A stretch of DNA of 64,000 nt from Candidatus Krumholzibacteriia bacterium (GTDB lineage Bacteria > Krumholzibacteriota > Krumholzibacteriia > LZORAL124-64-63), in assembly GCA_024763215.1 (NCBI GenBank), contig JANTFX010000001.1, positions 27,816-91,815 on the forward strand, written 5' to 3'. This document shows positions 21,488 to 62,149 of this stretch, piece after piece. Made by a program: the position numbers and the translations under genes. Each line of letters starts with the position of its first letter. Position 1 is the stretch's first letter. The notes under the pieces are model-generated. The model was given only the letters and a program-made list of their open reading frames with translations. It was not told the DNA's origin and ran no database searches.

Positions 21488-22486
21488 ATGGCTCGTTTCG
21501 GGAAGCTGCCTCTGGTCCTGGCAACGTTGATCAGCGTCATGGCGATCGTGGCGCTGCAAACCGCGTCCGTCGGGGGGGATGCTTCCCGGCAGACGGGCAG
21601 CCTGCTTGCGGTCCTGGCCTTGCCGTTGCCGTTGTTCCTGTCGGTGCTCTGGGGCTGGGCGATGCTGGCCCTGCAACCTCGGCGCTGGGTGCCCCTGGCC
21701 GCGGCGGTCGCCCTGGCGGCCGCGGGTCTGTGGGAGCACGGTCCCATGCTGTGGCAGGCTGCGTCCAACATGGCCGCGGGGCTGGTCGCAGGATGGGCTC
21801 TGCAGAAGCGACTGAGGCCCGATGCCGCCCTGGTCCTGTGCGCCGGGCTCCTGGTGCCCATGGTCGCGGTCGGTCTGCGGGAAATGCCCGTCAGCGACCA
21901 GATGGCCATGCTGCGGCAGGATATGTCTTCCATGATGGAAGCCAGGGTACCGGCTGCGGCGGACGAGGCTCAGCGCGAAAAAGCGCTGGCCCTGGAGATG
22001 AAAAAGTTCGATGCCGCCCTGCATGCGGCGGCCAAGGTGTATCCGCTGATGATGGCCCTGGGGCTATTGACCCAGGCGGCCCTGATCCTGGGGCTGGTCT
22101 GGTTCAGCGCCAGGTTGACCGGCGGGCTCACGCAGGGGTGGAAGTTCGGATCCTTTTCCCGCCTGAGGTTGCCGTTCTATACGGTCTGGTTGCTGATCGC
22201 GGGGTTGGGTCTGCTGCTGACCAGGGCCGAGCCCCTGCTGTCGGTGGGGTTGAATCTGGCCTTGCTGGCGGCCCTGGTCCTCAGCGTGCAGGGAGTCGCG
22301 GTGCAGGTGGCGGTGATGGGCCGCATGCTTTCACCTCTGGGTAGGTTTTTGTTCTGGTTCGTGATGGGTGTGTTCTTCGCCCCCCTGGTGCTCGCCAGCG
22401 GTGTTCTACTGGGGCTTGCGGACCAATGGCTCGATTTCCGGGGGTTAGACCGCCCGGTGATCGATGATGATGAAAAGGTGGTTTGA
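21488..22486 (+). CDS. YybS-like DUF2232 integral membrane protein
   Basis: A polytopic membrane protein sitting between rpsR and rplI, as in the Firmicutes rpsR-yybS-gdpP-rplI arrangement. The upstream ATG at 21410 is an alternative start. Confidence 0.6.
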   Translation: MARFGKLPLVLATLISVMAIVALQTASVGGDASRQTGSLLAVLALPLPLFLSVLWGWAMLALQPRRWVPLAAAVALAAAGLWEHGPMLWQAASNMAAGLVAGWALQKRLRPDAALVLCAGLLVPMVAVGLREMPVSDQMAMLRQDMSSMMEARVPAAADEAQREKALALEMKKFDAALHAAAKVYPLMMALGLLTQAALILGLVWFSARLTGGLTQGWKFGSFSRLRLPFYTVWLLIAGLGLLLTRAEPLLSVGLNLALLAALVLSVQGVAVQVAVMGRMLSPLGRFLFWFVMGVFFAPLVLASGVLLGLADQWLDFRGLDRPVIDDDEKVV

Positions 22487-53353: not shown

Positions 53354-53521
53354 GCGTGGTCCTCTCTGGAGGCGGAGCTGCGGATGACGGTCGATCCCGA
53401 TATCATGTTCCGGATGACAACATGCGGGGTGTCGTCCACAATGTGGCCGTGACGCCACGAGGTGGCAAGTATGCAGGCGGGCCTCCGGCACCGGTGGCCA
53501 TCAAATCCTGGGGAGCGAACG

Positions 53522-54883
53522 GTGAAGAAGATCCTGGTCGTCGATGACGAAGCCGCCATCCGGGAGACCCTGGAACAGATCCTGGGCTACGAGGGCTACC
53601 ATGTGCAGAAGGCCGGATCCGGACCCGAGGCCTTGCAGCTGATGTCCTCAGGGCTGCCGGATGTGGTCCTGCTGGACGTCAAGATGCCGGGGATGGACGG
53701 CTTCGAGGTCCAGCAGCAGGTGGCGGCTCGGGGCTGGGATGTCCCGATCATCGTGATCTCCGGGCACGGCAACATCGAAACCGCCGTGGAGGCGGTGCGC
53801 AAGGGCGCCTATGATTTCCTGGAAAAACCCCTGGACCGCTCCCGGTTGCTGCTGACCATCGCCAACTGCCTGGGGCACCACAAGGTGGTCAGGGACAACC
53901 GCGTTCTCCAGCAGCAGCTGCTCGAGGGGCCTCCCCTGGTGGGCGACAGCCCGGCCATGCTGCAGGTCAAGGACTTCATCACCAAGGTCGCCGCCAGCGA
54001 CGCCACGGTCCTGATCACCGGGGAGAACGGCACGGGCAAGGAGCTGGTGGTCAAGGCGATCCACCGCGCCAGCTCCCGGGCCGACAGGCCCCTGGTGGAA
54101 GTCAATTGCGCGGCCATCCCCCGCGACCTGGTCGAGAGCGAATTGTTCGGTCACGAGAAGGGCAGTTTCACCGGGGCCGACCGCCCGCGGACCGGGAAGT
54201 TCGAGCAGGCCGACGGGGGCACCCTGTTCCTGGACGAGATCGGGGATATGAACGAGCAGGCCCAGGCCAAGGTTCTCAAGGCCGTGGAGGAGAGCCGCTT
54301 CCAGAGGGTGGGTGGGGACGAGACCAGGGAGGTGGACGTCCGGATCATCGCGGCCACCAACAGGGACCTGACGGCCCCGGATTCCGGCTTCCGGCAGGAC
54401 TTGTTTTTCCGCTTGAACGTGCTGGCGATCCACTTGCCGCCCCTGCGGGAAAGGGGGGATGATGTCGAGCTGCTGCTGAACTGGTTCATGGCCGACCTGG
54501 GACGCAGGCTCAAGCGCAAACCCCTGCGGTTCCACCCCGACGCGCTGGCGATCCTGAAGGCCTACTCCTGGCCGGGGAATGTGCGAGAATTGCGTAACCT
54601 CGTGGAAAGACTGTTGATTATGGCTGCCGGGGAGACCGTCAAGCCCGTGGATCTGCCGCCCATGAATGTGGTGGCTCAGGAGGCGGGCATGGAGGAGGGG
54701 CTGCTGGCGTGCGGCGATTTCCAGGAGTTCAAATCGCGCAGCGAGGCGATATTTCTGCAACACAAGTTGCGGGAGAACCTCTATAATGTTTCCAGAACGG
54801 CTGAGGCGCTGGGCATGCAGCGAAGCAACCTCTACAAGAAGATCGCCAAGTACGGTTTGCAGACCCAGCCCGATTTCGGGTAG
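53522..54883 (+). CDS. Sigma-54-dependent response regulator (NtrC family: REC + AAA+ + Fis-type HTH), GTG start
   Basis: The receiver domain has the phospho-acceptor context (VVLLDVKMPGMDG). The AAA+ domain has Walker A GENGTGKE and the GAFTGA variant GSFTGA. C-terminal HTH. No histidine kinase gene is adjacent. Confidence 0.88.
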   Translation: MKKILVVDDEAAIRETLEQILGYEGYHVQKAGSGPEALQLMSSGLPDVVLLDVKMPGMDGFEVQQQVAARGWDVPIIVISGHGNIETAVEAVRKGAYDFLEKPLDRSRLLLTIANCLGHHKVVRDNRVLQQQLLEGPPLVGDSPAMLQVKDFITKVAASDATVLITGENGTGKELVVKAIHRASSRADRPLVEVNCAAIPRDLVESELFGHEKGSFTGADRPRTGKFEQADGGTLFLDEIGDMNEQAQAKVLKAVEESRFQRVGGDETREVDVRIIAATNRDLTAPDSGFRQDLFFRLNVLAIHLPPLRERGDDVELLLNWFMADLGRRLKRKPLRFHPDALAILKAYSWPGNVRELRNLVERLLIMAAGETVKPVDLPPMNVVAQEAGMEEGLLACGDFQEFKSRSEAIFLQHKLRENLYNVSRTAEALGMQRSNLYKKIAKYGLQTQPDFG

Positions 54884-55002: not shown

Positions 55003-55326
55003 ATGAAAAGGGTTGTTCTGATGCTGGTTTTCCTGGTCGCATGGAGCGTGGCTCTGCCCGCCGTGCACCACGGGAGCGCTCTAGCCGGTGACCAGGGAAC
55101 CGTGACTGACGGTGATGCCCATGATGGCAATGGTGGCAGGGTCTTCGATTCCTACGGGGCGGCCGATGATGGTGGCGACGGTGATCCGGGCGATGCCGGG
55201 GATGGGTACGGCTATGCCGACGATACCAGCGGCACGGGTCTGCAGGGCTACCAAGACGTCGATCCCCAGTGGTGGGATTTCCTGTTGCAATTGTTGATGG
55301 AGGTCCAGGCGGAGATCCTGCAATAG
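55003..55326 (+). CDS. Small secreted acidic Gly/Asp-rich protein
   Basis: RBS GGAGGAGAGG. Signal peptide MKRVVLMLVFLVAWSVALPAVHHGSALA. A low-complexity DG-rich core and an amphipathic C-terminus. Confidence 0.55.
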   Translation: MKRVVLMLVFLVAWSVALPAVHHGSALAGDQGTVTDGDAHDGNGGRVFDSYGAADDGGDGDPGDAGDGYGYADDTSGTGLQGYQDVDPQWWDFLLQLLMEVQAEILQ

Positions 55327-55353: not shown

Positions 55354-58300
55354 TTGATCCGGATCACCGATCCACTTCCTCGCCAAGGGATGCGGTTGAT
55401 GCAAGAACGGTATGATAGCCGAAAAAACCTGGATGGGGATTCCTCACGGATCCTGCCGTCCCTCAGCGCTGAGGACTGCATCCGCCTCGAGGAGATCGCC
55501 GACCTCCATTTCCACGCCTCCGCCTATTCTTCCTCCCTGGACTACTACCGCCAGCTCTGCCGGCCCGACATCCTGGCCCGCATGCCCCGCCAGCAGGCCT
55601 TCCGCCTGCTGCGCAAGTCCATCGACGCGGCCATCCTGCTGGGGGATTTCCACCATGTGGACCACCTGCTGGCCCACGCCGATGCCTTGCTGGCCGAAGC
55701 CCCGGTCGAGGATCCCGAACTCGCGGCGATCACCAGAGCCATCTTCCAGACCCGCAGGGCCACGGCCTTGCGTGAACGGGGCAGGCTCAACGATGCCCTG
55801 AACCTCGGCAAACGTGCCTTCTCCGTGCTGGCGATGACCGACCTGCATGCCGATGTCGCCATCCTTCAGGTCGGCATGGGGATCTGCTACATGCGCCTGG
55901 GCAAGCTGGAAAAGGCCGAGGAATTCTTCGGCGACGGCCTGGCCACCTTCCGCCGCATCGGCCATGACCTGGGGGTGGCCAACCTCCTGAACAACCTGGC
56001 GCTGATCCACAAGATCCGCTGCCGTTGGAGCAAGTCCCTGGACCTGATGGACCGCGCCGTGGAGCTGGCCCGGAGCATCGGCGCCAGCCATTTGCTGCCC
56101 GGTTTCTACCTCAACCAGGCCCTCGTGCTGCAGAAGACGAACAATCTCGGCGAGGCCCGCGGTTTGCTCGAGAAGGGCTTGCGGCTGGCCGTCAGCCTCG
56201 GCGACCGGTTGCGGCGCACGCGAATCCTGCTGGCGTACGGGCGCCTGGAGATTTTGGCCGGACGCCTGGCCCGGGCCGAGGAGATGATCCTCGAGGGCAA
56301 GACCCTGGCCGACGAATTCGGGCTCCTGCGTGAGTCCACCATCGCCGACGAATACCTGGGCGATGTGCTGCTGGGGAGGGGCGACCTGGAAAAGGCCCGT
56401 TTCAATTACGGGCTGGGTCTGGAAAAGGCCCGCCGCATCGCTTCGGGGAACGATCTGGAAGGTGAACTCCAGCGCCGTGTGGGGCAGGCCCTGCTTCTGG
56501 CCGGTGATCATCCCCAGGCCGTTGCGGTCAGCCAGGCCGCCATCGCGGTCTGCGAAAAGTGCGGTGAGGATTTCGAGATCGGATTCTGTCACCTTACCCT
56601 GGGGCAAGCCTACTCCGCCCTGGGGGATCGCAAGCAATCCGACCATCACTTCCGTCAGGCCATCGGCATTTTCCACGCCCAGAATCTCGGCCATCTGTGG
56701 TGCGAGGCCATCATCCGGTTCTGTGACCGGAGGCTGGAGACTGCGGGCGAAGCAGAACTGCTGCTGTTGCGGCGCTACCTCATGGACGCCCAGGAAAACG
56801 GCGCCGCCGCCGTCAGCGACCGTATGCTGTGTGAGGTGCTGGAGAGGCTGGCAGGAGTCCAGATCGGGCTGAAGCAATTCGACGATGCATTGCTGACGGT
56901 GTTCGAACTGGAACGGATCGGCTCCGGGCTCGGGGACGAAGGCCTCGCCCGCCGCGTCGCCGGGCTGCGCGGGACCATCGAAGCCGGTCTGCTGGGCGAT
57001 GTGCAGACGACCCGGCGGCACCTGAACGCCCTGTCCTCGGTGCCGGGGCTGCATGCCTCGGGCGATGCGTCGGTGCCCCGGAACCTGGGGTCGGTGCTGG
57101 CCGCGGGCATGGAAAGGGTCGAGGCCAGAGGCGGTTTCATCGCCATGACCACCCCCTCGGGCGAGGTGGAGATCACAGCCCGGAACGGCATGACGGAGAA
57201 CCTCTGCCTCCAGCTTACCAGGTGGTTCGGCGCCGCGGACGATGCCGACCAGGAAGCCAGGCCCGTCCTGTTTTCCCGCCTGGGCGCAGGCGACACCTTG
57301 CTGGACGACGTCCCGGCCGTGGCCACCGTGGCTGATTCCTGCATCTTCATGCCCATCGGGCTCTATGGCCGCAACTTCGGCTTGATGTTCCTGGCGCGCA
57401 AGGGCGCGGGGACGAGCTTCCCGCGTGCCTCCCTTGACTTCCTGGCGACCTACATGGGCTTTTTGGCCCTGTTCCTGCACGAGAAGGACAGGGGCACCGG
57501 CCATGGTCAGGAGGCCACGCCCCTGGCCGAGGTCGAGAGTTTCCAGAACATGATTACCCGCAACGCGGGGATGCTCGAGATGTTGGAGTTGGCCCGGAAG
57601 GTCGCCGCCAGCGAGCTGACCGTGCTGCTGACCGGAGAAACAGGAACGGGCAAGGGCCTGCTGGCCTACTCCATCCACGCCCTGAGCCACCGCTCGACCG
57701 GGAAATTCATGGCCATCAACTGCGCGGCCATCCCCGAAGCCCTGCTCGAGAGCGAGTTGTTCGGTCATAAGAAAGGCAGCTTCACCGGAGCTTACCAGGA
57801 CAAGCGCGGCCTGCTGGCCGAGGCCGAGGGCGGGACGGTATTCCTGGATGAAGTCGGGAAAATGCCCCTTGCCATGCAAGGCAAGCTGCTGCAGTTCCTC
57901 GATACGCGCAAGGTCAGGCGCGTGGGGGACAACCAGGAAACCCGGGTCGATGTGAGGATCATCTGCGCTTCCAAGCGTAATTTGCAGGAACTGGCCGCCG
58001 AGGGGCTTTTCCTCGAGGATCTTTATTACCGGCTGCGCGATTTTCCCCTTGCCATCCCGGCCCTGCGTGAACGTCCTGATGACATCATGCTGCTGGCCAG
58101 GCATTTCGTCCAGCGCTTCAGCCAGGAAGCTGGTCTGCCGGTGCCGGATATGGACCATTCTTTCCAGCAATGCCTGCTCGCCCACGACTGGCCAGGCAAC
58201 GTCAGGGAACTGGAGAAGACCCTCCAGCGCGCCATCGTGCTGGCCAAGGATGACCACACCTTGCGTCCCGAACATCTGCCCCGGGATATGAGGCTCCAGG

Positions 58301-58482
58301 AAGCTTCCTCGCCGGCGGCATCGACCTGCCCCTTGCGCGAAACCCTGGCAGTGGTCGAATGCCGGGAGATTGCCCGCGCCCTGGCCGTGTGCAACGGGAA
58401 CAAGGCCGCAACCGCCAGGGCGCTCAAGATCAGCTACCCGAATCTGCTGAAGAAGATCCGCCATTACGGAATCAGCACCTGA
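55354..58482 (+). CDS. Sigma-54-dependent transcriptional activator with a long N-terminal TPR array and a GAF-like domain (TPR-GAF-AAA+-HTH)
   Basis: 1042 aa. Multiple TPR-like repeats across the N-terminal 500 aa. A GAF-like block from about residue 560 to 700. AAA+ with Walker A GETGTGKG, GSFTGA and Walker B VFLDEVG. C-terminal Fis-type HTH. The start is uncertain (TTG 55354, or ATG 55390/55399). Confidence 0.85.
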   Translation: MIRITDPLPRQGMRLMQERYDSRKNLDGDSSRILPSLSAEDCIRLEEIADLHFHASAYSSSLDYYRQLCRPDILARMPRQQAFRLLRKSIDAAILLGDFHHVDHLLAHADALLAEAPVEDPELAAITRAIFQTRRATALRERGRLNDALNLGKRAFSVLAMTDLHADVAILQVGMGICYMRLGKLEKAEEFFGDGLATFRRIGHDLGVANLLNNLALIHKIRCRWSKSLDLMDRAVELARSIGASHLLPGFYLNQALVLQKTNNLGEARGLLEKGLRLAVSLGDRLRRTRILLAYGRLEILAGRLARAEEMILEGKTLADEFGLLRESTIADEYLGDVLLGRGDLEKARFNYGLGLEKARRIASGNDLEGELQRRVGQALLLAGDHPQAVAVSQAAIAVCEKCGEDFEIGFCHLTLGQAYSALGDRKQSDHHFRQAIGIFHAQNLGHLWCEAIIRFCDRRLETAGEAELLLLRRYLMDAQENGAAAVSDRMLCEVLERLAGVQIGLKQFDDALLTVFELERIGSGLGDEGLARRVAGLRGTIEAGLLGDVQTTRRHLNALSSVPGLHASGDASVPRNLGSVLAAGMERVEARGGFIAMTTPSGEVEITARNGMTENLCLQLTRWFGAADDADQEARPVLFSRLGAGDTLLDDVPAVATVADSCIFMPIGLYGRNFGLMFLARKGAGTSFPRASLDFLATYMGFLALFLHEKDRGTGHGQEATPLAEVESFQNMITRNAGMLEMLELARKVAASELTVLLTGETGTGKGLLAYSIHALSHRSTGKFMAINCAAIPEALLESELFGHKKGSFTGAYQDKRGLLAEAEGGTVFLDEVGKMPLAMQGKLLQFLDTRKVRRVGDNQETRVDVRIICASKRNLQELAAEGLFLEDLYYRLRDFPLAIPALRERPDDIMLLARHFVQRFSQEAGLPVPDMDHSFQQCLLAHDWPGNVRELEKTLQRAIVLAKDDHTLRPEHLPRDMRLQEASSPAASTCPLRETLAVVECREIARALAVCNGNKAATARALKISYPNLLKKIRHYGIST

Positions 58483-58980
58483 GCCGCAGGGTATCGGGTA
58501 TTTTTCGTATCTATTCCCGGCAGGACCATTAATTTTCTTTCCATGCCAAGTGTCATGTTTGCAACAGGTTAAAAAAACATGAAAATATATATAAACATTA
58601 TTAATAGAACGACCCTCCATTGCCGGGACGGCCTTCTTTCTGGTTCTGTAACTTGTTGCTAGAGAAGTATTTAAAAATATCGAAATTTATCCTGTTTCGG
58701 TATGATCCCTGCTGTTGTTACGGCAGAGAGGCGACATTGACAGGAAACCTCTTGTGAAGAGTTTGACGCAAATGACATTCGTGTTTTCGGGAGGAATGGT
58801 TCGTACCCTGTTGGTCCTAGGATGAGCAGGGGGCTTTCATCAAGAAGTGCCGGTCCGGTGGCTGTGAAGAGGTGGGGTCTGAGCAACCCACCGCGGCGGG
58901 CAAAGGGAAAGCCAGGATTTTTCTCCCGAAACGCGAAACCTCCCTGGATCTGATCACCGGATCCCAGGAAAAAGAGCCCT

Positions 58981-59039
58981 TCGATCTTGAAAAGGCGAGA
59001 TTCAAGATCGAGTCACCGCAAGGTGGGGCTCTTTTTTTT
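58981..59039 (+). terminator. Double hairpin plus U8 tract (candidate intrinsic terminator / sRNA 3' end) inside the long IGR
   Basis: A perfect 11-bp inverted repeat TCGATCTTGAA...TTCAAGATCGA (58981-59011). Then the hairpin GAGUCACC-GCAA-GGUGGGGCUC and TTTTTTTT (59032-59039). Confidence 0.45.
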
Positions 59040-59165
59040 GGTGTATCCTTCCCGCCTGCTCGTCCCTTTTTGGAAACATTGTCCCCATTCCTAGCCGCCG
59101 TTTCCCTCTGCTTGGCCTTTTTCCGGGCCCTCCGGGGTACCCTGTGCGGGTCGTCTGTGAGAGGC

Positions 59166-59184
59166 GGCATGACCCGCTCGTGCC
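59166..59184 (+). promoter_or_regulatory. Imperfect inverted repeat GGCATGA-N5-TCGTGCC: a candidate enhancer-binding-protein upstream activator site
   Basis: About 120-140 bp upstream of the -24/-12 element at 59306. This is the usual distance for a bEBP UAS. Confidence 0.3.
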
Positions 59185-59305
59185 GAGGCGTGACTGTTCA
59201 ACCTCTTAGATGACAATGCATTAGGATGGGGACGATTCTGGGCTACCTGCGTGCCTTCTACCTCCGGAAGAGAATTCCGCCCCCCGGATGGGTCGGGGGT
59301 CCTTG

Positions 59306-59321
59306 TGGCATGGACCGTGCG
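59306..59321 (+). promoter_or_regulatory. Candidate sigma-54 (-24/-12) promoter TGGCAT-N5-GTGC
   Basis: GG and GC separated by the canonical 10 nt. It lies 45 nt upstream of the lipoprotein ATG at 59365 and immediately downstream of two sigma-54 activator genes. Confidence 0.45.
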
Positions 59322-59364
59322 TAGGACTTGATGCGGAGAATCACAGGCTTGGCCGGAGGTGGCA

Positions 59365-60379
59365 GATGGATGCTCTGAATAACAGGAAACGGTCCCGGAA
59401 ACGCTGGAGTGCCGCCGTGGGCATGGTCTTGCTGACCCTGTGCATGCTGGGGGTGGCCGCATGCAATAACGAGGATTGCGTCAGTTGTATCAACACTCCC
59501 GAGCCGCCGGTCGTTCCCACCGGTGTCTACTCGGTCAGCGGGGACAACCAGGTGACCGTCTACTGGTATGATATCTCCTATTCCCCTTATGACGGACGCT
59601 ACAACGAGAACGTGGTTTCTTATGCGGTGTACAGCAGGTTCTTCCAGGAGGGGGACCTGAATGATCCCAACCGGGATTTCTATTACATAGGGGAAGTAGC
59701 CTGGGACGAGAATTTCGATCCGGACACGGGCCAGCATTGGTTCGTCGATACGGACGTTCAGAACGGTTTCGAATACGAATACGCCGTCACCGCGGTCAAT
59801 GCAGCGGGTATGGAAAGTGCCCTGAGTTACGAAAATGTCGTCGATGCCCCCCTGCCCATGAGCCCTCCGGGCACCTTCGTGGAGGTATTCGATTCCCTCA
59901 ACGGGAGTTCCCGTCAACTGGGCGGTTTCGATTTCAGCCTGGCCGGGGAGAACCCCACCGATCTGTATGCCGGCAGGGTGGACCCCAACCAGGCCGAGTC
60001 CACCGCGGACATCCGGGTGTATTTCGAGGGCTCGGTGCCCTATGTCGAGCGCACCTCCACCAACGTGAAGATCCAGGATTTCGGGGTCTTCCTCGACGGG
60101 CAAGATAACCTGATCTTTTCCGGGGTGTCCTGGGCGCCCGCCGACGGTTACTCCAGCACCGGCAAGCTGGAACTGGTCGATGGCCACATCTACGTGCTGG
60201 AGCTCTACGATCCGCAGACCCAGAGCCTCCACTACGCCAAGTTCGGCGTGGTGGGGATCGCGCCCACGGTCTCGGTGCGTCTGGTCTGGGCATACCAGCT
60301 TATTCCGGGACTGCCGGAACTCAAGGCCCCGGAAGCGCCGGAGCCCGCCGATGGTCAACTCCGGTTCATCCGCTTCTAG
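59365..60379 (+). CDS. Secreted lipoprotein with an FN3/Ig-like beta-sandwich region
   Basis: RBS GGAGGTGG. Signal peptide plus lipobox (LGVAAC), followed by a Cys-rich stretch (NNEDCVSCINTPEPP). Strong GC3 codon bias on this strand. Confidence 0.7.
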
Positions 60380-60406
60380 CGGGATCGGAAAAGGGAGCGT
60401 GCAGTC

Positions 60407-62149
60407 ATGAAACGGATAATCAAGGCAAGCCTGCTGGTCCTGGCCCTCGGTGCGATGATTCCCATGTCCACCCTGGCCGCTGCTGCCGATGGCAAGGACA
60501 AGGATTTCGACTACGGCCAGGTCGACCTGCGGGCGGGCGTCTGGGTGGACAAGTCCGCCGATGAGGTCTACCAGGCCGGCGAGCGCCTGGATGTCGGGTT
60601 CCAGGTCAACCGGGACGCCTACGCCGTGGTCTACCGGATCGATACCGACGGTCTGGTCACCGTCCTGTGGCCCCGCACCCGCATGGACGACGGATTCGTC
60701 TTCGCCGGTCATGAATACCAGGTGCCGCTGCCAGGGTCGGCCCCCATGCAGGTCGGCGATGACGAGGGGGAGGGCTACGTGGAAATCGTGGCTTCCCTGT
60801 ACCCCTTCGATCTGCGGGAACTGGAAATCGATTTCCACGGCGAGGACCGCCGGGACCCCTACGTCTACGAGGTAGCCGGGGACCCCTTCCTGGCCATGAA
60901 CGAGGTCAACTACGCCATCACGGGTCTGGAAGATACGGCCGACTACGTGGTGACCAACTACACCACCTACTACGTGCACCGCAAGGTGGACCATCCACGT
61001 TACCTGTGTTCCCAGTGCCATGTGGATGACGGCCAGCAGTATGATCCCTACCGGGACCACTGCACCCTGGACATCGAGTATGATTACGGCTGGAGCAACC
61101 GCTGGTACGACACCTACGGGTATTATCCCGTCTACGCCCAGCCGGTATACGTGTACGTCGATCCCTGGACCTACCGCCCCTGGGTCAACTTCTGGTACTG
61201 GCCGGATTATGTCTGCGGACCCACGCTGGGATACACCTGGTATTCCGATTGCTGGGCCTGGAGCTATTCCCCCTACTACTACGGTGATGTCTACACCTAT
61301 TACAACGGAGGCGGGCGCAGGTACCGCCCCCTGACGCCCGGTGGTGGGGACCGGGTGGCGCACAAGACCCGGGACTATCGGCGCGTGACGCCCCTGGTCG
61401 AGAACGACGGGCCCGATGCCCGCCAGCGCCAGGCCATGACGCGCCGCTCCCCCGCTGCGGGTGAGGCAACGAGAACCAGGACCCCCGCGGCAGGCGGCGG
61501 GGGAACCACCGTGGCCCGCGGGAATTTCCGCGGTGAGCCGCCCGTCATCAGCGCCGGGCCGGTGGTGGACGATCCGGGCGACAGGAACCTGAAGCCCGGC
61601 CTGCGCATCCGGGAACCGGGCCAGCCGGTGGGCCGGGAACGCTCCGGCACCGGATACCGGCACGTCGCCGGGGACCGGGCGGCGAAGCCGGCCCTCAGAC
61701 CGGTGACGCCGGCGGCGCCCGTGCGGAAGCCCGGGACGACCCGGAGAGCAGGAACCCCAGCGGGCGTTCACAGGACGCGGACTCCTTCCGGGGACCGGGA
61801 AGCCTCCGGCCGCACCATCAAGCCGGTCGAGCCCCGGCGTCGAGGAACCAGGATCTGGAATTCAGGTGCCGCCACCAACCGCGGGAGCGATCGCTCGCAG
61901 CGGGTGCAGCCGCGATCCGATTCCCGCTCCAACCGGGCGCGGCAGACACCGCGGACGGCGCCGCGGACACGGACCCGTGACAGCGGTGACCGTTCCGGCG
62001 GCAAGTCCGACACCAGGGTCCGCAGCGGCGATTCAGGGGGCAGCAGGACCCAGGGGGTCAAGGAACCGGCGCGAGGAAGTGGATCGGCGACCCGCGGCAA
62101 AGGTGGCACGAGCAGCTCCCGCAGCAGCTCCGGAAGCCGCCGAAGGTAG
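60407..62149 (+). CDS. Secreted DUF4384-like protein with a Tyr/Trp-rich segment and a 270-aa Arg/Ser/Thr/Gly-rich disordered C-terminus
   Basis: RBS AAGGGAG, 27 nt after the upstream stop, so probably an operon. Signal peptide MKRIIKASLLVLALGAMIPMSTLAAA. An N-terminal domain resembling DUF4384 (AGERLDVGFQVNRDAYAVVYRIDTDGLVTVLWP). Then a Y/W-rich block and a basic RS-rich tail. Confidence 0.7.
   Translation: MKRIIKASLLVLALGAMIPMSTLAAAADGKDKDFDYGQVDLRAGVWVDKSADEVYQAGERLDVGFQVNRDAYAVVYRIDTDGLVTVLWPRTRMDDGFVFAGHEYQVPLPGSAPMQVGDDEGEGYVEIVASLYPFDLRELEIDFHGEDRRDPYVYEVAGDPFLAMNEVNYAITGLEDTADYVVTNYTTYYVHRKVDHPRYLCSQCHVDDGQQYDPYRDHCTLDIEYDYGWSNRWYDTYGYYPVYAQPVYVYVDPWTYRPWVNFWYWPDYVCGPTLGYTWYSDCWAWSYSPYYYGDVYTYYNGGGRRYRPLTPGGGDRVAHKTRDYRRVTPLVENDGPDARQRQAMTRRSPAAGEATRTRTPAAGGGGTTVARGNFRGEPPVISAGPVVDDPGDRNLKPGLRIREPGQPVGRERSGTGYRHVAGDRAAKPALRPVTPAAPVRKPGTTRRAGTPAGVHRTRTPSGDREASGRTIKPVEPRRRGTRIWNSGAATNRGSDRSQRVQPRSDSRSNRARQTPRTAPRTRTRDSGDRSGGKSDTRVRSGDSGGSRTQGVKEPARGSGSATRGKGGTSSSRSSSGSRRR

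Follow-up and report, generated by a model that had tools for sequence, protein, structure and literature searches.

A conserved, structured RNA with a predicted sigma-54 promoter beside sigma-54 activator genes in Krumholzibacteriota

The 64,000-nucleotide stretch of a Candidatus Krumholzibacteriia bacterium genome analyzed here (contig JANTFX010000001.1, positions 27,816 to 91,815; the whole stretch is called the window) contains at 58483-59365 an intergenic region (IGR) that separates the gene of a 1042-aa TPR-type sigma-54 activator from a lipoprotein gene. Comparison with related genomes shows that this IGR holds a separate gene encoding a structured non-coding RNA, predicted to run on the + strand from ~58724 to ~59041 (~318 nt). 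An initial annotation, made from the window sequence only, had described the IGR as unusually AT-rich and had proposed that it encodes a small RNA of 150-330 nt ending at a U8 tract. Both proposals are borne out: the G+C content of the IGR is 52% compared with 66.8% for the window, and the RNA found here falls within the expected size range, ends at the U8 tract and shows strong covariation in 47 sequences. The most AT-rich section (58483-58723, the first ~240 nt, 39% G+C) is indeed present, but it does not belong to the RNA, since it is DNA upstream of the promoter.

Loci for comparison were collected through homologues of the lipoprotein, some of them labelled Candidatus Krumholzibacteriota; an alignment of 29 homologues served to retrieve 37 loci from a one-genome-per-species collection. 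In blastn comparisons of the IGR with these loci, the DNA identity reaches 68-87% over IGR positions ~245-556 (window ~58727-59038), although the flanking lipoprotein is only 45-70% identical as protein. A single-sequence nhmmer search with the element at 58700-59040 detected it in 31 loci (E = 4.5e-62 to 2.7e-15; weakest match 1.5e-13) and also in locus L018, and two further copies are truncated at contig ends; by blastn and nhmmer together, the RNA is present in all 32 genome loci that include the upstream flank. With an nhmmer profile (E = 1e-96 to 1e-58) there is exactly one copy per locus and no second copy in the window. Metagenomes were scanned with a DNA pattern built from blocks of the RNA alone, thus avoiding circularity, and yielded 23 further contigs (L038-L060), which come from sulfidic springs and from marine and estuarine sediments. 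All of those with enough flank carry a TPR-type activator gene upstream and lipoprotein and DUF4384 genes downstream, and on contigs that reach further 5' a response-regulator-type activator gene precedes the TPR-type one. Together, the 37 genome loci and the 23 metagenome contigs supply 47 non-redundant copies of the RNA. A mobile or viral origin was rejected, as the pattern had 0 matches in viral contigs. The RNA is conserved in sequence, fold and position across Krumholzibacteriota, always between the TPR-type activator gene and the lipoprotein/DUF4384 operon.

Application of RNAalifold to 31 sequences gave 64 base pairs, 31 of them with compensatory changes. The model that was tested comprises 13 helices and 92 pairs, and was evaluated on the 47 non-redundant sequences (alignment A3) against controls in which pairing partners were slid by 1-3 columns and against 500 column shuffles. 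In the model 90.6% of cells are paired, compared with 39.5-53% in the slid controls; 55 of the 92 pairs are changed on both sides (versus 23-31), as are 350 individual cells (versus 69-103), and the covariation score is 0.301 (versus 0.065-0.111). None of the 500 shuffles attains the model value for any of the five measures. The compensatory pairs include partners up to ~160 nt apart, and the best-supported helices are H12, H8, H3 and H6. Compensatory changes thus exceed the controls, as in a conserved secondary structure, and the alignment of orthologous IGRs, which the initial annotation had suggested as a check, supports the RNA by covariation. The strand is indicated by the fact that G-U pairs make up 9.6% of paired cells and A-C pairs 3.1%, a threefold excess that together with the conserved U-tract points to an RNA on the + strand.

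A small protein-coding gene was ruled out. Pairwise indel lengths between family members are rarely multiples of three (226 leave a remainder of 1, 130 a remainder of 2, and 24 are divisible), and none of the frames stays open throughout the family. The region admits open reading frames (ORFs) of 43-117 aa, and three of these were searched with no match in Pfam. The one of 113 aa at 58872-59213, for which the initial annotation had already noted the lack of a ribosome-binding site, is spurious, given these indel lengths and the lack of a conserved frame.

The individual helices differ in how they are conserved. H1, at the 5' end, is 97% paired, with its sequence conserved rather than covarying (1 of 7 pairs changed on both sides). 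In the central domain the long-range helix H3 (58778-58795 with 58921-58937) is 94% paired and has double changes in 7 of 17 pairs; H6 has them in 4 of 7 pairs and H8 in 14 of 16. The loop of H9 has a core, GTGGGGTC, that is identical in 47/47 sequences, each column of the 11-nt block being at least 93% conserved, and its hairpin is closed by covarying pairs. In all, three G-rich loops are invariant: ACAGGGA (H1), GAGGUGGGGUC (H9) and GGCGAG (H12, at 58994-58999). The fold also has GNRA tetraloops and invariant junction and loop bases, and no internal repeats were found in the RNA. Pseudoknots and alternative pairings were sought in an all-against-all column scan, in which clade-level noise prevailed and no additional helix was convincing. 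A tempting alternative pairing of CCUCUUC (3' arm of H1) with AAGAGG (H9 loop) involves near-invariant bases; in the one informative variant, L018, H1 is kept and this pairing is weakened.

In a GC-rich sub-clade (L020, L025-L027, L030-L032, L042, L047 and L057) a single GNRA-capped hairpin takes the place of H4 and H5 (alignment A3 columns 115-160, window 58796-58831), and H10 is likewise replaced by other hairpins. These three parts of the fold therefore appear to be dispensable or lineage-specific.

The 3' end is a conserved domain with an unusual terminator. In the window the closing stem H11 (GAGCCC/GGGCUC) is followed directly by U8. Its arms belong to a 16-nt pair (58964-58979 with 59026-59041) that surrounds both 3' hairpins, namely H12, which is the perfect 11-bp repeat 58981-58991 with 59001-59011 and is double-changed in 10 of 11 pairs, and H13, a GNRA-tetraloop hairpin that is 100% paired. 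The H11 stem covaries, and a T-run follows it in 47/47 sequences. Both a terminator scan and folding identify an intrinsic terminator (GC-rich stem plus U-tract), atypical in that the stem encloses two conserved hairpins. Of the double-hairpin terminator proposed initially, the terminator with its U8 tract thus stands, but the tandem arrangement does not: with both hairpins enclosed by the 16-nt pair, the RNA ends in a three-way junction, which H11 closes and U8 follows.

Folding of the segment 58700-59045, for which a calculation had been suggested earlier, gives -150.9 kcal/mol, far more stable than shuffled sequences (z = -6.9), and z = -6.25 for 58930-59045; in neither case was any shuffle as stable. 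All inverted repeats listed in the initial annotation are present to within ~5 nt, among them TCCCGGCA/TGCCGGGA at 58515-58522 and 58621-58628, and TCATGTTT/AAACATGA at 58553-58560 and 58575-58582, ~5 nt from the coordinates first given.

The RNA is inferred with good support to be transcribed from its own sigma-54 promoter, P1, and the downstream operon from a second one, P2. At P1 the GG lies at 58699-58700 and the GC at 58711-58712, with a predicted start near 58724, one base before H1. The family consensus, in the first ~20 alignment columns, is TGGTAYG-N4-YTGCW; GG and TGC with the exact 10-nt spacing are present in 46/47 sequences. In the exception, L035, the spacer is 1 nt longer; this assembly is indel-ridden, and a frameshift affects its activator gene as well. 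From the -12 element to H1, family members differ in both sequence and length. A simple promoter scan found no sigma-70-type promoter in the region, and the TATGAT first proposed as a -10 box lies instead inside the -24 element of P1. P2, with a predicted start near 59332, would leave a 5' untranslated region of ~34 nt. Here the initial annotation is supported: the sigma-54 element TGGCAT-N5-GTGC that it placed 5' of the lipoprotein gene is conserved as TGGCAYR-N4-NTGCS in 34/34 loci, within a spacer that otherwise cannot be aligned. Coordinates of all features are collected in Table 1.

Table 1. Features of the RNA locus, with positions in the window
Feature	Position	Strand	Basis
RNA gene, ~318 nt (predicted start to end of U-tract)	58724..59041	+	nhmmer conservation, covariation
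H1, 5'-terminal hairpin	58725..58754	+	stem GAAGGGG/CCUCUUC (in the window AGAGAGG/CCUCUUG); invariant loop ACAGGnA
Central domain, H4-H9 closed by the 17-bp long-range helix H3	58778..58937	+	covariation
Invariant loop GAGGUGGGGUC of hairpin H9, Shine-Dalgarno-like	58869..58879	+	column conservation
H10, variable hairpin (the repeat CCTGGATC...GATCCCAGG of the initial annotation)	58946..58964	+	5/7 pairs double-changed, 81% of cells paired
3' domain and intrinsic terminator	58970..59039	+	closing stem H11 plus U8, enclosing H12 and H13
P1, predicted sigma-54-type promoter of the RNA, CGGTATGATCCCTGCT	58698..58713	+	conserved GG-N10-GC
P2, predicted sigma-54-type promoter of the lipoprotein/DUF4384 operon, TGGCATGGACCGTGCG	59306..59321	+	conserved GG-N10-GC
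Degenerate remnant of the activator gene's intrinsic terminator, including TCATGTTT/AAACATGA	58546..58582	+	alignment with relatives
AT-rich palindrome, consensus CTATAAA-N5/6-TTTATAG, ~100 nt 5' of P1	58586..58606		alignment of 32 P1-upstream regions
GTAAC-N4-TTG motif, ~65 nt 5' of P1	58648..58658		conserved in P1-upstream alignment
Conserved DNA block CGTCCCnTTTTGGGGAAnCTGTCCCnCAAnTCnCACA, 37 nt, just past the RNA terminator, ~230 nt 5' of P2	59061..59097		34/34 aligned spacers
IHF-like TCAA-N4-TTR motif, ~110 nt 5' of P2	59197..59209		loosely conserved TAAC/TCAA-N4-TT block in P2-upstream alignment
Response-regulator-type sigma-54 activator gene	53462..54883	+	Pfam Response_reg, Sigma54_activat, HTH_8
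TPR-type sigma-54 activator gene	55354..58482	+	Pfam TPR repeats, Sigma54_activat, AAA lid, HTH_8
Downstream operon: lipoprotein (59366-60379), DUF4384 protein (60407-62149)	59366..62149	+	Pfam DUF4384; syntenic in all loci

Several conserved DNA elements accompany the two promoters. The AT-rich palindrome upstream of P1 is, by its position, a candidate site for an activator or a bending protein. The GTAAC-N4-TTG motif that lies between it and P1 appears IHF-like by its resemblance to the IHF consensus WATCAANNNNTTR, and it is followed by a conserved TTAAAA at 58671-58680. Past the terminator, the 37-nt block contains an inverted pair of GTCCCC/GGGGA half-sites and a repeated TGTCCC, between flanks of variable length that cannot be aligned; its core pattern has its sole zero-mismatch match in the window at this place. 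Its position makes it a candidate enhancer (upstream activating sequence) for P2 or even for both promoters, and the IHF-like motif nearer to P2 may, judged likewise by where it lies, be a bending site. When the rest of the window was searched for this enhancer-like block and for further sigma-54 promoters, only chance-level matches turned up. Two elements of the initial annotation have no counterpart in this picture: the palindrome GGCATGA-N5-TCGTGCC (59166-59184) lies inside a window-specific insertion and is not conserved, and the GC hairpin at 59281-59300 is incidental, there being no conserved hairpin 5' of P2 (mean z = -0.23 over 34 loci).

Right behind the activator gene, the DNA of most relatives encodes a hairpin that covaries, TAACCCGTTG..CAACGGGTTA, and then a T-run; this is the terminator of the activator gene (stem of 10-12 bp; for example a 12-bp stem plus T6 at 3064-3090 of L024). 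In the lineage of the window (the window, L001 and L049) this stem has decayed and an A-run stands in place of the T-run, so that read-through into the RNA gene may be greater in this lineage.

Among the neighbouring genes, the TPR-type activator gene is always the immediate 5' neighbour of the RNA (57-85% identity by tblastn, in all loci with upstream flank). Its product combines an N-terminal TPR region with an AAA+ sigma-54 interaction domain and a Fis-type helix-turn-helix. The response-regulator-type activator, also a bacterial enhancer-binding protein (bEBP), has orthologues of 71-89% identity, encoded 5' of the TPR-type gene wherever the locus extends far enough. The interval between the two activator genes contains a small ORF of ~107 aa (55003-55326), preceded by a GGAGG ribosome-binding site; its product would have an N-terminus like a signal peptide and a body rich in Asp and Gly. 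The closest relative, L049, has similar DNA at the corresponding position. Downstream of the RNA, the lipoprotein gene (start at 59366) is preceded by a GGAGG ribosome-binding site and encodes a lipobox-type signal sequence. The AlphaFold model of the lipoprotein (predicted local distance difference test, pLDDT, 81) has two FN3-like beta-sandwich domains, with matches to FN3; these generic folds yield no clue to function. The last ~280 codons of the DUF4384 gene (61300-62149) encode a low-complexity tail rich in Arg, Ser, Thr, Gly and Pro, in DNA of 72-77% G+C with a strong A-over-T skew (+0.27 to +0.42).

The reading preferred here, with a probability of about 0.62, is that the RNA is made from its own sigma-54-driven promoter and would serve as a trans-acting regulatory output of the activator module. 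An activator encoded upstream (TPR-type, response-regulator-type or both) would turn on P1 and P2 together, acting at conserved sites located both in the AT-rich DNA 5' of P1 and in the block past the terminator. The RNA would then be a co-regulated output of the signalling module acting in trans, and its three invariant G-rich loops, ACAGGGA, GAGGUGGGGUC and GGCGAG, might make the contacts with a partner; these last two steps are weaker than the first. A protein or ribonucleoprotein partner is slightly favoured over simple base pairing with mRNA, because almost the whole fold is conserved and not just a short seed, although the data do not separate the two. A possible but distinctly less probable reading is that the RNA is no conventional base-pairing small RNA but belongs to a new class, a phylum-specific, highly structured effector of the sigma-54 module with an obligate protein or ribosome partner, or a ligand-sensing or catalytic RNA. 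Its full-length structural conservation, GNRA tetraloops and three invariant loops would fit such an effector, and one possibility is that the Shine-Dalgarno-like H9 loop GAGGUGGGGUC, whose core GUGGGGUC is identical in 47/47 sequences, engages the 16S anti-Shine-Dalgarno sequence or a dedicated RNA-binding protein.

A number of observations weigh against a sigma-54-driven, trans-acting RNA. The evidence for the RNA gene is comparative throughout, and sigma-54-like strings (matches with up to 2 mismatches) occur in the window at chance frequency, so that the assignment of P1 and P2 rests on conservation and on context, namely the two adjacent activator genes. The window P1, CGGTATG-ATCC-CTGCT, has 4 differences from the classical TGGCACG-N4-TTGCW, and the family consensus has 2. 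In the lineage of the window no clear terminator follows the activator gene, so that some of the RNA could arise by read-through and processing. The RNA is always co-oriented with the same downstream operon, as a cis-regulatory leader would also be. On the side of function, no convincing case of conserved complementarity to neighbouring mRNAs was found; the RNA has no conserved repeats of GGA or A-rich partner motifs; and genes for Hfq, ProQ, CsrA or IHF were found nowhere within the 0.5 Mb of DNA searched, a result that is uninformative.

Specific targets and partners were also sought. With the operon leader as the second strand, RNAduplex returned a duplex that was implausible and defied interpretation. 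When complements of the three invariant loops were sought, one match emerged within the DUF4384 gene: GATCCCTGG (61160-61168, encoding Asp-Pro-Trp) is perfectly complementary over 8 nt to the invariant H1 loop CAGGGAUC and is present in about 2/3 of loci. As a target it was rejected: codon analysis shows ordinary synonymous variation there (Asp GAT in 37/42, Pro CCC in 29/42), and the match is most likely coincidence. A CsrA sponge of the CsrB/RsmZ type was rejected as well, with 8.0 GGA per RNA versus 7.0 expected from composition and one conserved loop site, ACAGGGA in H1. This loop presumably matches the CsrA consensus from systematic evolution of ligands by exponential enrichment (SELEX), and one contact of CsrA type is possible. 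A CrcZ-type sponge for Hfq/Crc was rejected on similar counts (per RNA, 0.4 AANAANAA and 1.7 ARNx3 motifs, none at a conserved column).

Of the rival explanations, the main one, though unlikely, is a cis-acting leader, either riboswitch-like or a protein-dependent attenuator. Transcripts from P1 would as a rule end at the conserved terminator, and a ligand or protein bound to the structured domain would let them read through into the operon and thereby add to those from P2. Such a leader would account for the constant position of the RNA 5' of the same operon and in the same orientation, for the complex conserved fold with its GNRA tetraloops and invariant junction and loop bases, and for a terminator that is integral to the conserved structure. 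However, a conserved promoter, P2, stands between that terminator and the gene in 34/34 loci, terminator and start codon are separated by 330-520 nt of mostly unalignable sequence, no conserved alternative (antiterminator) pairing was found for the arms of H11, and the association with the upstream activator gene is equally strict.

It is less probable still that the RNA derives mainly from the 3' untranslated region of the activator mRNA by read-through and processing, with GG-N10-GC a part of the RNA or a processing signal. In the window, indeed, no clear terminator separates the activator stop codon from the RNA, and CrcZ is made in both ways in Pseudomonas putida (PMC5113210). Yet most relatives have a strong activator terminator (hairpin plus T-run) and still keep both the RNA and GG-N10-GC, the sequence from the -12 element to H1 varies as a spacer between promoter and start should, and P1 is similar in form to P2. 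Finally, the idea that it is not an RNA that is conserved, but regulatory DNA such as an extended enhancer or operator region, or else a gene for a small protein, is close to refuted. The region does lie between two sigma-54 promoters and by two activator genes, and ORFs can be drawn through it, but neither DNA sites nor a protein gene would be expected to show compensatory changes in 55 of 92 pairs with partners up to ~160 nt apart, the excess of G-U over A-C pairs on one strand, the conserved hairpin and U-tract, or indels overwhelmingly not multiples of three in ORFs without a Pfam match.

Comparison with known RNA families was made with Rfam 15, whose families include 6S, tmRNA, RNase P, CsrB/RsmZ, CrcZ, GlmY, Qrr, Pxr, Y-RNA-like and OLE/ROOL/raiA RNAs. 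A permissive scan of 58300-59500 (E <= 10) gave only 4 chance-level matches, to eukaryotic or Streptococcus models and all outside the RNA, and 7 diverse family members gave no match at E <= 1. This covariance-model scan had been suggested in the initial annotation, which rated the region as the one most likely to hold something undescribed. A scan of the whole window likewise yielded nothing for this element, but does detect the signal recognition particle (SRP) RNA and tRNAs of the window, showing that the method works on this genome. At 2432-2934, a cluster of three tRNA genes (Ser-GGA, Ser-CGA and Ala-CGC) is followed by the bacterial small SRP RNA (2837-2934, 68 bits). ARAGORN found no tRNA or tmRNA at the RNA locus. 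Elsewhere in the window it reported a 95-nt tRNA-Asn with the unusual anticodon ATT at 22029-22123, where the Rfam tRNA model is silent at its gathering score; this is probably a false positive inside coding sequence.

To our knowledge, Krumholzibacteriota have no cultured representative, and no paper linking this phylum to any regulatory RNA was found in the literature. The locus offers a testable module that combines two sigma-54 activators, two conserved promoters, candidate enhancer and bending sites, a structured RNA and an operon for envelope proteins. The 47 sequences and the model backed by covariation make the RNA a candidate for a new Rfam family, and since its entire fold and three of its loops are conserved throughout a phylum, a specific molecular partner seems likely and worth finding. 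The arrangement of a small RNA gene beside its enhancer-binding activator, found in Pseudomonas, Vibrio and enterobacteria, would thereby extend to a deep branch of the Fibrobacterota-Chlorobiota-Bacteroidota (FCB) group.

The closest parallels are found in Pseudomonas. CrcZ is ~400 nt in length. Its gene lies directly downstream of cbrB and requires CbrB and RpoN for expression, and in Pseudomonas putida the RNA arises also by read-through and processing (PMC5113210). In both systems, the RNA gene is 3' of and co-oriented with the gene of its own sigma-54 activator and has an RpoN/bEBP-type promoter (both the control by that activator and the promoter being predictions here), the RNA is comparatively long, and read-through from the activator gene may add to its amount. 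However, the two RNAs have no similarity in sequence or by Rfam, and the repeated A-rich Hfq/Crc-binding motifs of CrcZ are not conserved here; the present RNA has a much more constrained fold, belongs to another phylum, and adjoins an activator with a TPR N-terminus rather than a receiver domain. The nrsZ gene of Pseudomonas aeruginosa adjoins ntrC and requires NtrC and RpoN (PMC4253122). It, too, lies in the IGR directly after a bEBP gene, with an RpoN promoter whose -12 element is CTGC (TGGCACAGCCCCTGCA), and is activator-dependent, as is inferred for the RNA here. There is no homology between the two: NrsZ consists of three similar stem-loop modules and is processed to short forms, whereas the RNA described here is one integrated fold without repeats.

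Other sigma-54- and bEBP-dependent small RNAs are encoded beside their signalling genes, as with GlmY/GlrR in Enterobacteria, where GlmY acts through protein binding. This is the mode slightly favoured for the present RNA. Qrr/LuxO in Vibrio is a further case of such RNAs beside signalling genes (bioRxiv 10.1101/2021.07.01.450815). Both GlmY and Qrr are much shorter (~100-180 nt), have known targets and belong to defined Rfam families that give no match here. In its architecture the RNA is also reminiscent of OLE, ROOL, GOLLD and the raiA motif, large structured bacterial non-coding RNAs of unknown function that are all in Rfam. It shares with these its many covarying helices, invariant loop and junction bases, GNRA tetraloops, restriction to a lineage, and a function that cannot be deduced from sequence. 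It differs from them in having no Rfam match, in being smaller than OLE, ROOL and GOLLD, and in having a predicted promoter of a clearly regulated type and a fixed place inside a signalling module. The design is thus a known one, a small RNA gene next to an enhancer-binding activator with a sigma-54 promoter and an intrinsic terminator, and the RNA family itself is new to Rfam.

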